Below the pieces are notes generated by a model. The model was not told the origin of the DNA and did no database searches. It saw only the letters and a list, made by a program, of their open reading frames with translations. 64,000 nucleotides of DNA, taken from NCBI GenBank assembly GCA_913050325.1, contig CAJWZP010000002.1, positions 66,180 through 130,179 of the forward strand. Direction: 5' to 3'. The stretch is from an uncultured bacterium (GTDB taxonomy: Bacteria; Desulfobacterota_D; UBA1144). The position numbers were made by a program, and so were the translations under genes. Positions 23,820 to 25,734 of the stretch are shown here, piece after piece. Every line of letters begins with the position of its first letter. The first letter of the stretch is position 1.

Positions 23820-24593
23820 TTAATTTCCCTTAAAGTTAGGATTTCTTTTTTGATTAAAAGCCTCTCTTCCCTCAATAAAATCATCACTGTTTTGTATTTT
23901 GTTTATTAAATCTTTTATTTCATCAAAATCTTCTTGTTTTTGTATTTGTGATTTTTCAAAAGAATTAATAGATTTCTTAAATAATTTCAGAGATAAAGGT
24001 GCATTGGTTGAAATTTTTTTACATAAATCAATTGCATCATTGATTGTATTTTTACTTTCTGATAAAAAGTTAGCTATTCCCATATTAATAGCATCTTTTG
24101 AATCAAATTTATCAGCAGTAATAAAAATTCTTCTTGTATTTGAAATACCAATACAATTTATAAAATTTTTTATCCCGCTATAACTATAAGGGATCCCTAG
24201 TCTTGCAGGAGGAATACAAAAAATTGCGGATTTAGAAAAAAATCTAAAATCACAACATATAGCAATTTCTAAAGCACCACCGAAAATATGACCGCTTATG
24301 GCCGCTATGAATATTTTACTAGATTCTTTAATTCTTTGAGTAATTTGAATCAAAGGATGATTATTGTCATTATAATCTTCCTTAATAGAAGATATGTCGT
24401 ATCCTGAAGAAAATATCTTATCATTCGAACTTTTTAATAATATACAAGTTATTTCAGCATTTTCTTCAATTGAATCAATGAAATTTATTATTTCTTTAAT
24501 CATTTTTGGTGTAAAGGCATTCTTTTTTTCTGGATTATCTATAGTAATTAATCCCAATTTGTTATCTATATCAAATTTAACAAAACTTTCCAT
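23820..24593 (-). CDS. enoyl-CoA hydratase/isomerase (crotonase) family protein
   Basis: 257 aa with a crotonase fold (ITIDNPEKKNAFTPKMIKEI...GHIFGGALEIAICCDFRF). Confidence 0.8.
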   Translation of the reverse strand: MESFVKFDIDNKLGLITIDNPEKKNAFTPKMIKEIINFIDSIEENAEITCILLKSSNDKIFSSGYDISSIKEDYNDNNHPLIQITQRIKESSKIFIAAISGHIFGGALEIAICCDFRFFSKSAIFCIPPARLGIPYSYSGIKNFINCIGISNTRRIFITADKFDSKDAINMGIANFLSESKNTINDAIDLCKKISTNAPLSLKLFKKSINSFEKSQIQKQEDFDEIKDLINKIQNSDDFIEGREAFNQKRNPNFKGN

Positions 24594-24637
24594 ATTCGTT
24601 ATATTAGTCTATATTATCTCTTTTAAAAGGATTAATT

Positions 24638-25180
24638 ATGCCAGTATATGAATTTGAATGTAGAGAATGTATGTCTAGTTACAATAAGGCTATTGATAAA
24701 CTCGTCAAAAATCTTAATAAAAAATATGCCGCAGATTTATACAAGAAAAATAAAAATTTTAAATATATAGAATTATTAAATCCTAAGACAGATAAAACAA
24801 TTTTTTCTGTCGGTAAAGAAGGAAACAAAGGTATTAGAAGATTTAGATATAAGTTAGATGAAAAAAAGTTTCTATATCTTGAAATAATTGATTTTAAATT
24901 TAGCGAACTTTTTTTTGAAGGTGATAAAGTTGAAGACATTGAATGCCCTAACAATAAAAAGTGTAAAGATATACATAGAGTTTTTTCCGCTTTTAAAGCT
25001 ATATTTGAAAAAAGAGGAGGAGCTAAAGATAGAGCTCCTAAACCTGGAGACCCTTTAAGTTGGCACAAAGATTACAAAGTTATGAAAGATGAAGAGCAAG
25101 CTTCTAATTGGGTTGGACAAGACCATTTAAATCAATATTTTGGTAATTCTCAACATGATGGTTCTTATGGATCAGATTAA
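24638..25180 (+). CDS. FmdB-like zinc-ribbon protein with a ~90-aa insertion between the two Cys knuckles (paralog A)
   Basis: 180 aa. The N-terminus MPVYEFECRECMS matches the FmdB-family start (MPxYEYxCxxC). The second knuckle is CPNNKKC, followed by RVFSAFKAIF..G (compare FmdB CPxCGxx.RLIS..F.F). Has a disordered Gly/Asp/Ser-rich tail. Confidence 0.6.
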   Translation: MPVYEFECRECMSSYNKAIDKLVKNLNKKYAADLYKKNKNFKYIELLNPKTDKTIFSVGKEGNKGIRRFRYKLDEKKFLYLEIIDFKFSELFFEGDKVEDIECPNNKKCKDIHRVFSAFKAIFEKRGGAKDRAPKPGDPLSWHKDYKVMKDEEQASNWVGQDHLNQYFGNSQHDGSYGSD

Positions 25181-25191
25181 GGAGAAAGTTA

Positions 25192-25734
25192 ATGCCATTA
25201 TATGAATTTGAATGCGTACCATTAAGAAAAAATATTTTAGATTCAATAGTTTCTATTGAAAAAAAACCAACTAAGAAAACAATCGAATCAATTGTAAAAA
25301 AGTATTCAAATATAAATTTAATAATACTTGTAGACCTTGATAAAGAAAAAGAAATTGCAAGATTTGGAGAGGCTATGGATTCCGATATTGATATTGATCT
25401 TTATGTAAATGATGGAAAAATAATGGCCTTATATTCCGTAACTAATTTTAGATTTTCTGAGCTTGTTATGAGTGAAGAAGATGAAAAAAATATTAAATGT
25501 CCATGTTGTAATAAAAAACAGAAAGTTGAAAGAGTTATTTCTTCATTTTCTTACACTAGTGACTTATCAACAAACCCACCTAAGCCACCTGGTGTTAAAG
25601 ATTTACCTAAAGAAATTCAGGGAAAATTTGCTACTACAGAGTACGTTGAAGAGAAAGATAAGCCAGCGAATATCAAAAGAGACAATAGATATAAGCATCA
25701 ATATCAAGATAAATCCAAAACAAAAATACTTTAA
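25192..25734 (+). CDS. FmdB-like split zinc-ribbon protein, paralog B (first knuckle degenerate)
   Basis: 180 aa. Starts MPLYEFECVPL (one Cys only). Shares F(K/R)FSEL, CPxxxKKxK..RVxSxF and PKP blocks with the upstream paralog. GGAG SD 8 nt upstream. Confidence 0.6.
   Translation: MPLYEFECVPLRKNILDSIVSIEKKPTKKTIESIVKKYSNINLIILVDLDKEKEIARFGEAMDSDIDIDLYVNDGKIMALYSVTNFRFSELVMSEEDEKNIKCPCCNKKQKVERVISSFSYTSDLSTNPPKPPGVKDLPKEIQGKFATTEYVEEKDKPANIKRDNRYKHQYQDKSKTKIL

Follow-up and report, generated by a model that had tools for sequence, protein, structure and literature searches.

The locus raises the question of how a zinc ribbon of the FmdB family, which spans about 40 residues, can be encoded with its two cysteine knuckles some 90 residues apart, and why it should be encoded twice in succession. 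We analyzed this in a window comprising the whole 64,000-nt stretch of DNA. The original prediction described two adjacent reading frames of 180 aa, 11 nt apart and with a GGAG Shine-Dalgarno sequence ahead of the second, as diverged tandem paralogs in which an extra domain interrupts an FmdB-like ribbon. Both frames, here called A and B, were found co-oriented at the coordinates claimed and with the 11-nt gap (Table 1), and the GGAG is part of an AAGGAG. The tandem, diverged paralogy is supported by BLASTP, which aligned the proteins at 30% identity over 119 aa, ungapped (E 1e-13); no other FmdB-like genes were found within the 64-kb window. Judged from profile matches and structural models, A and B are FmdB-family zinc ribbons, each with a predicted 73-residue domain that separates the first Cys knuckle from ribbon strand 2.

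Table 1. Positions of the genes, protein segments and sequence signals of the A-B pair in the window
Feature	Position	Strand	Remarks
Promoter-like TTAACA-17-TATATT upstream of A	24577..24605	+	10/12 consensus positions; weak evidence
AAGGA, Shine-Dalgarno-like	24627..24631	+	6 nt ahead of the A ATG; read from sequence
Gene A, 180 aa	24638..25180	+	FmdB-family zinc ribbon with predicted inserted domain and conserved C-terminal tail
A residues 1-13, ribbon strand 1 and first knuckle (MPVYEFECRECMS; Cys8, Cys11)	24638..24676	+	PF09723 profile 1-13
A residues 14-86, predicted inserted alpha/beta domain: two helices, four-strand meander; basic, net charge +10	24677..24895	+	
A residues 87-119, strand 2 (KFSEL), acidic loop, CPNNKKC (Cys103, Cys109), strand 3, RVFSAF	24896..24994	+	
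A residues 120-180, conserved tail (RAPxPGD..H..YK..KDEE....WVGQDHLNQYF)	24995..25177	+	Invariant alignment columns
AAGGAG, Shine-Dalgarno of B	25179..25184	+	Overlaps the A TAA stop, 7 nt ahead of the B ATG; read from sequence
Gene B, 180 aa	25192..25734	+	Paralogue of A, same split-ribbon architecture
B residues 1-13, strand 1 and first knuckle, Cys11 replaced by Leu (MPLYEFECVPLRK)	25192..25230	+	
B residues 14-86, predicted inserted alpha/beta domain, homologous to that of A by sequence comparison; near neutral, net charge -3	25231..25449	+	
B residues 87-119, strand 2 (RFSEL), acidic loop, CPCC (Cys103, Cys105, Cys106), strand 3, RVISSF	25450..25548	+	PF09723 profile 14-41
B residues 120-180, conserved tail (DLSTxxPKP...LP...(D/E)Y(I/V)EEKD(R/K)P)	25549..25731	+	Orthologue alignment

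The sequence features on which the family assignment had been proposed were recovered in both proteins. The MP(V/L)YEFEC start (MPVYEFEC in A, MPLYEFEC in B) is invariant or nearly so in the orthologue alignments, and the F(K/R)FSEL block, the second knuckle and RVxSxF all lie within residues 86-119. When the suggested comparison with the Pfam zf-FmdB profile (PF09723) was made, both proteins matched, split and below threshold. PF09723 and TIGR02605 alike match A and B in two pieces, with residues 1-13 aligned to profile positions 1-13 and residues 87-116 to positions 14-41. The scores of A (17.4 bits with Pfam, 20.0 bits with TIGR02605) and those of B over its two stretches (25.5 and 21.0 bits, respectively) fall below the curated cut-offs of 34.4 bits for PF09723 and 31.3 bits for TIGR02605 because the domain is split. 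AlphaFold2 models run with family alignments gave A and B the same layout: a strand at residues 3-8, helices at 9-24 and 28-37, strands at 41-48, 53-59, 66-74 and 77-84, a ribbon strand at 87-91, the knuckle loop and a strand at 112-115. The last insert strand is predicted in both proteins to lead directly into the ribbon strand. Block pLDDT over residues 1-100 was 81-95 in B and 66-90 in A, and the tails were mostly below 50.

Short orthologues provided a further view of the same architecture. An A+B profile was searched against 1.84e9 representative proteins, and the 63 matches consisted only of family members or their fragments and canonical short FmdB ribbons. The short ribbons matched profile positions 1-13 and 87-161; all matches over positions 14-86 were fragments of the A/B family, so that this search returned no independent relatives of the insert. 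The best short match (P0103; 87 aa, E 3.5e-24) has the B tail motifs DLSTDMPKPDLSGLPP...DYIEEKDRPKANR. The loci that carry it (L038-L041) are ordered era, an enoyl-CoA hydratase (ECH) gene on the minus strand, an 85-aa ribbon, an 87-aa ribbon, hisIE on the minus strand and rpoZ, and thus hold a short A followed by a short B, the 85-aa ribbon ending in WVGPEYLDQYFN, the A tail signature. In two other loci, L035 and L036 (the latter from a groundwater Dadabacteria MAG), a long A of 167-170 aa precedes a short B of 87 aa. From these loci it follows that long/long, long/short and short/short pairs all occur at one syntenic site. L042-L044 hold additional short-form fragments, and their ECH genes are nearest to those of the short-form group.

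In the alignment, the gap of the short forms comprises exactly residues 14-86, and the short forms have the canonical C-x2-C-x18-C-x2-C spacing with CPKC knuckles. Two of them, P0103 (53.3 bits) and P0154 (50.0 bits), pass the Pfam gathering cut-off of 34.4, and it is through this orthology, not through their own scores, that A and B are assigned to the FmdB family. The split-ribbon architecture is thus supported by the two-piece Pfam/TIGRFAM matches, by the AlphaFold2 strands that flank the insert and by syntenic short orthologues that do not have residues 14-86. These three sources agree on an extra domain inside the ribbon of both paralogs, as had been proposed; the size proposed for it, about 90 aa, was too large, the insert being 73 residues long (14-86).

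We then compared the two inserts. Identity between A and B is approximately 20% in the insert and 49% in the ribbon, and Gly59 is the sole insert residue invariant across both proteins. A profile-profile comparison of the inserts alone (hhalign) gave a probability of 92% with E 6.4e-7 over 60 columns. Since this match is accompanied by identical length, position and predicted secondary structure, the inserts of A and B are, by sequence comparison, homologous and share an ancestor. Their net charges across lineages range from +3 to +10 in A and from -5 to +5 in B. Pfam/NCBIfam searches with residues 14-86 of A and B gave no match even at E up to 10, PAS and Cache families included, and a Foldseek search of the insert against the PDB gave nothing at E <= 1e-3, the best weak matches being of the same class. 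The likeness of the modelled insert to known domains is therefore one of fold and not of family membership. Roadblock/LC7 proteins (MglB, LAMTOR, Robl) differ from the insert in that there is no Pfam match to them, that the predicted element order of the insert is alpha-alpha-beta-beta-beta-beta rather than alpha-beta-beta-alpha-beta-beta-beta, and that no small GTPase gene is linked to A and B, Era being nearby and not consistently adjacent.

With the FmdB family (Pfam PF09723, Zn_ribbon_8; TIGR02605, CxxC_CxxC_SSSS), A and B share the MPxYE(F/Y)xC motif at the initiator Met, two Cys knuckles, an (F)xEL strand, R/K-V-x-S-x-F after the second knuckle and a C-terminal tail. They differ from it in 73 extra residues from knuckle 1 to strand 2, which place the knuckles 91 residues apart instead of 18 (counted between Cys11 and Cys103 in A; about 17-18 is canonical). 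Further differences are conserved tail motifs in place of a degenerate, low-complexity Gly/Ser/Cys-rich tail, a second knuckle that is non-canonical in the marine clade, and a fixed tandem pair. A search for solved family structures by sequence returned only generic zinc ribbons (e.g., RNA polymerase subunit P) at E >= 0.016. That zinc ribbons can in principle accept an inserted domain is familiar from other proteins. The literature on FmdB, PF09723 and TIGR02605 gave passing annotations only and no functional study, and no name for a split FmdB ribbon of this kind or for the A-B pair was found in the literature and databases, in line with the view that the architecture had gone undescribed.

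The metal site was found to be conserved in part and variable in part. Cys8, Cys11 and Cys103 are invariant in A (17 A orthologues for Cys8 and Cys11), and the position of the fourth Cys depends on the lineage: +6 or +7 (CPNNKKC) for the marine clade, +3 (CPxC) for non-marine lineages. Most lineages have CxCG as the second knuckle of B; CPFC occurs in one group, xxCC in some marine lineages, and a single Cys with a nearby His in one group. In the window, the knuckle patterns are CxxC and C-x5-C in A and C-x2-L and CPCC in B. The missing Cys of the first B knuckle (ECVPL) had been read as a sign of relaxed metal binding. While Cys11 is indeed absent, window B keeps four Cys (Cys8, Cys103, Cys105 and Cys106), and C11L is strain-specific, being common only to P0027 (99% identity) and thus to one near-identical population; in B relatives at 79-81% identity the knuckle reads ECIPC or ECISC, with Cys11 kept. 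Relaxed metal binding in window B is therefore a possible reading of the sequence, with a ligand swap equally plausible. Selenocysteine at the position of the lost Cys was considered and ruled out, the codon being TTA.

The tails had been described as disordered and charged. AlphaFold2 confidence is low in both, but they contain strongly conserved motifs and are not generic disordered stretches. The A tail has a dN/dS of 0.012-0.064 and is the most constrained segment of the gene, and its WVGxxxLxQYF end is retained in the short-A orthologues. The B tail motifs are likewise found in the short-B orthologues P0103 and L036:2309-2572, and an extra NRYKHQY extension was noted in the marine clade. 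Across lineages the A tail is slightly acidic and the B tail basic.

Both genes showed the marks of coding sequence under constraint. Whole-gene dN/dS between orthologues (Nei-Gojobori) was 0.04-0.24 for A and B, and in their sub-regions dN/dS was < 1 wherever dS was unsaturated and non-zero. The exact A protein sequence was recovered on 84 public contigs, Tara Oceans among these, and homologues occur in many marine and other metagenomes (26 clusters for A and 70 for B, none of which carries a functional name). A and B are real genes under purifying selection, and the observation lies well outside what chance would give. The gap between them is 3-20 nt across lineages; A and B are probably co-transcribed and translationally coupled. 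The promoter-like site upstream of A lies partly within the 5' end of the divergent ECH gene, and promoter and terminator scans of the region gave site numbers not above those of shuffled sequence.

When one genome of each GTDB species was scanned, 28 loci with the family were recovered. The MAGs and SAGs that they come from carry the label Candidatus Dadabacteria or Thermodesulfobacteriota, apart from bins that are evidently mislabelled. This pair of ancient paralogues is confined to the class Candidatus Dadabacteria of the phylum Thermodesulfobacteriota. NCBI ranks Ca. Dadabacteria as a class within Thermodesulfobacteriota and lists the marine order Ca. Nemesobacterales in it. The closest locus was L010 (B 81% identical), and the window GC of 30% fits the streamlined marine pelagic Dadabacteria clade. 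The window is accordingly assigned to marine Ca. Dadabacteria; an origin in SAR11 was rejected, the closest genomes being Dadabacteria/Thermodesulfobacteriota MAGs. No phage, defense or mobile origin was indicated by PHROGs, which gave no match, or by phage tblastn, which also gave none; the sole PADLOC match (AbiC, 16 bits), on a Lys-rich helix, was treated as noise.

Conservation and synteny with hisIE and rpoZ had been suggested as a check, and all sampled Dadabacteria loci that extend across the site (GC 29-53%) have the order A, B and then hisIE on the opposite strand, with rpoZ past hisIE. ECH, era and aspS lie upstream of A in most loci. The ECH gene, divergent from A, is adjacent to it in approximately 60% of lineages and elsewhere is separated from it by 2-6 kb of other genes. 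As hisIE is convergent, it has no operon link to A-B, and with the ECH adjacency broken, the sole robust functional link is that of A with B. The genomic neighbourhood is otherwise uninformative on the role of the pair. A putative natural A-B fusion (P0002, 266 aa) was considered as Rosetta-stone support and set aside: contig L049 has a TAG stop separating the two genes, and P0002 is thus an annotation read-through. It was also noted that B is broken in this contig.

Because all three length states occur at one syntenic site, a stepwise gain may be considered, in which the short pair is ancestral, the domain entered A first, and recombination between the two neighbouring genes later copied it into B at the corresponding site. 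This would also suit the short form of every FmdB-family member outside Dadabacteria and the exact x18 spacing and perfect CPKC knuckles of the short orthologues, and the unrooted species tree is compatible with it if the root is placed on the L038 branch. However, in a neighbour-joining species tree (Era, HisIE, ECH and RpoZ; 834 columns), the E. coli outgroup rooted on the marine clade in 80/100 bootstraps and on the short-form clade in 0/100. L038, L035 and L036 form a clade in this four-gene tree (69% bootstrap) that is nested on short internodes among long/long lineages, usually as sister to the long/long L016. The Era of L038 is 68% identical to that of the long/long L023 and L019 and 42-43% identical to that of the marine long/long lineages. 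The inserts themselves are also at odds with stepwise gain: those of A and B are reciprocally monophyletic in 200/200 bootstraps, the B inserts are not nested within the A inserts, and with paralogue rooting the A subtree was rooted on the long-A/short-B L035/L036 in <= 1/200. The Kimura distance between A and B inserts (2.77) is far above the deepest A-A (0.86) and B-B (1.36) values, and a recent copy from A to B would thus need extreme acceleration. The polarity is drawn from neighbour-joining trees of four genes with a distant outgroup and from short paralogue alignments; long-branch and low-GC artefacts may affect both, as the branches of the marine and low-GC lineages are long. Within these bounds we regard it as likely that one insertion preceded the A/B duplication and was followed by precise in-frame loss in one clade, in B first and in A later, and see stepwise gain as a clearly lesser possibility. 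In the favored history, an ancestral single-copy ribbon would have gained the domain once before the gene was duplicated, and the deletion of exactly residues 14-86 from B and then from A would have restored canonical ribbons.

With respect to function, our tentative suggestion, held with low confidence, is that A and B are small cytoplasmic adaptors or regulators that work jointly. That they act together is suggested by the 3-20 nt spacing, the Shine-Dalgarno sequence that overlaps the A stop, strict co-occurrence and differing charge, and also by the loss of the B insert in a clade where some members then lost the A insert too. Equal lengths, complementary charges that are stable across lineages and the tails kept in the short forms similarly point to a co-acting cytoplasmic pair. 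The Zn(Cys)4 ribbon would serve as a structural clamp or scaffold and the conserved tails as effector or docking motifs. The inserts may be accessory interaction modules, with the basic A and neutral B inserts perhaps pairing mutually or with a partner, and would be dispensable provided that ribbon and tail are kept. Taken as a whole, the best explanation combines the split FmdB ribbon pair, the insertion history given above and co-acting adaptors or regulators, and we lean towards it.

Other roles can be weighed against the co-acting adaptor or regulator pair. The historical label "FmdB regulatory protein" would be met by nucleic-acid-binding regulators in which the zinc ribbon and the basic A insert bind DNA or RNA, with the divergent ECH gene, RNA or the ribosome as targets. 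We consider this unlikely: the literature search shows no family member with demonstrated DNA or RNA binding, ECH adjacency is interrupted by 2-6 kb of genes in many lineages, the B insert is not basic, and Pfam/NCBIfam profile searches found no helix-turn-helix or known RNA-binding motif. A small-molecule sensor, with the insert as a minimal PAS/PDC/Cache-type ligand-binding module that signals via the shared beta-sheet to ribbon and tail, appears rather improbable to us. Compared with PDC/Cache/PAS-like extracytoplasmic sensors (CqsR 9nia, TlpC 5wbf, KinD 4jgo), the insert shows 4-14% identity, which amounts to no sequence similarity, and, between strands 2 and 3, lacks the helices that form their pocket; A and B are, unlike these sensors, cytoplasmic, have neither transmembrane segments nor a signalling output domain, and embed the domain in a zinc ribbon. 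The knuckles might instead be redox-active and not zinc-binding, acting as thiol-disulfide switches with Cys variation that reflects redox chemistry. FmdB-family selenoproteins with U/CxxU motifs, present in a selenoproteome review (PMC9312934), and the unusually variable second knuckle (CPxC, CxC, xxCC, C-x5-C) would be consistent with this, but almost all orthologues have four Cys at two knuckles (three and a nearby His in one group), as expected of a structural metal site, in-frame TGA is absent, and a CxxC redox couple would be destroyed in window B by the loss of one Cys of the pair. We hold the redox reading to be very improbable.

The most far-reaching form of a joint action would be a heterodimeric switch, with a PAS/Roadblock-like module set in the zinc-ribbon sheet, a signal sensed by the insert that gates the tails, and the pair as an essential, lineage-defining regulator of Dadabacteria. 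We regard this as a long shot. The signal might be a ligand, a partner protein or zinc/redox status at the variable knuckle. If such a switch were true, it would offer the first functional handle on the FmdB family.

Among small bacterial proteins without known function, the FmdB-type zinc ribbons rank with the most widespread, and A and B offer a clear-cut natural example of a domain, folded in the models, placed inside a zinc ribbon and fixed in both paralogues. Marine pelagic Dadabacteria have genomes of ~1.22 Mb that are >96% coding with few or no duplications (Graham and Tully, PMC8115339). As the pair is kept in such streamlined ~1.2-Mb genomes, which shed duplicates, a selected and non-redundant role is implied. 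The long/long, long/short and short/short states at one site constitute natural controls for the roles of insert and tail. The pair is mainly an evolutionary and structural curiosity, and also a possible entry point to the uncharacterized FmdB family. It was also noted that several public bins with the family are evidently mislabelled.

It was noted that the small ORF downstream of hisIE was conserved across the marine low-GC Dadabacteria loci, with 58-81% identity over residues 1-72, and that its counterparts in these loci measured 75 aa, compared to 94 aa in the window. The window copy continues for approximately 19 additional codons and shares 62 nt with the 3' end of gene B. A Pfam search with this ORF gave zero matches. 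In one marine subclade (L001-L004 and L015), a flavodoxin gene was found to separate gene B from the small ORF/hisIE; the window lacks this gene. In two further marine loci, L012 and L014, the hisIE match was restricted to the C-terminal PRA-PH, HisE-like half within an ORF of 116 aa, and therefore the HisI half may be absent or encoded elsewhere in these loci.

Features in the window and in related loci
Feature	Location	Strand	Remarks
Small ORF, 94 aa	25673-25957	-	Window; directly downstream of hisIE
Terminator-like hairpin, then T-run	25018-25039	-	Window; within gene A
Flavodoxin gene (example)	L001:6627-7130		PF00258
HisE-like half of hisIE (example)	L012:8781-9092		
875-aa protein	L008:2734-5361		GH115_C and Flg_new domains
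A-B protein annotated as 266 aa	L049:182-982		GCA_001629555.1, LUMM01010849
Dadabacteria-type locus, other-taxon label	L038-L041		NCBI GCA_038889915.1, JAWAGM010000188

On the other side of the pair, a deep-sea low-GC Dadabacteria contig encodes an 875-aa protein between the enoyl-CoA hydratase gene and gene A, indicating that this adjacency is not obligatory. The hairpin inside gene A was the sole one of its type in the region (chance expectation 0.5), and zero minus-strand genes terminate at that position.

The 266-aa protein annotated in L049 was considered as a true A-B fusion and rejected, as gene A was extended past a TAG stop into gene B, which is itself broken after 'GKIMV' by a deletion or frameshift. 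This protein probably arose as an artefact of annotation or assembly. Several public bins with a Dadabacteria-type locus (L038-L041; L011; L013, L015, L019, and L027; L035) were labelled as other taxa, namely Candidatus Caldarchaeum sp. (an archaeon), Candidatus Hydrogenedens, Spirochaetales/Spirochaetia, and Ignavibacteriales. Because the contigs possess era, ssb, and a SPOR-domain gene and show Dadabacteria synteny, the labels appear to result from mistakes in binning or classification.
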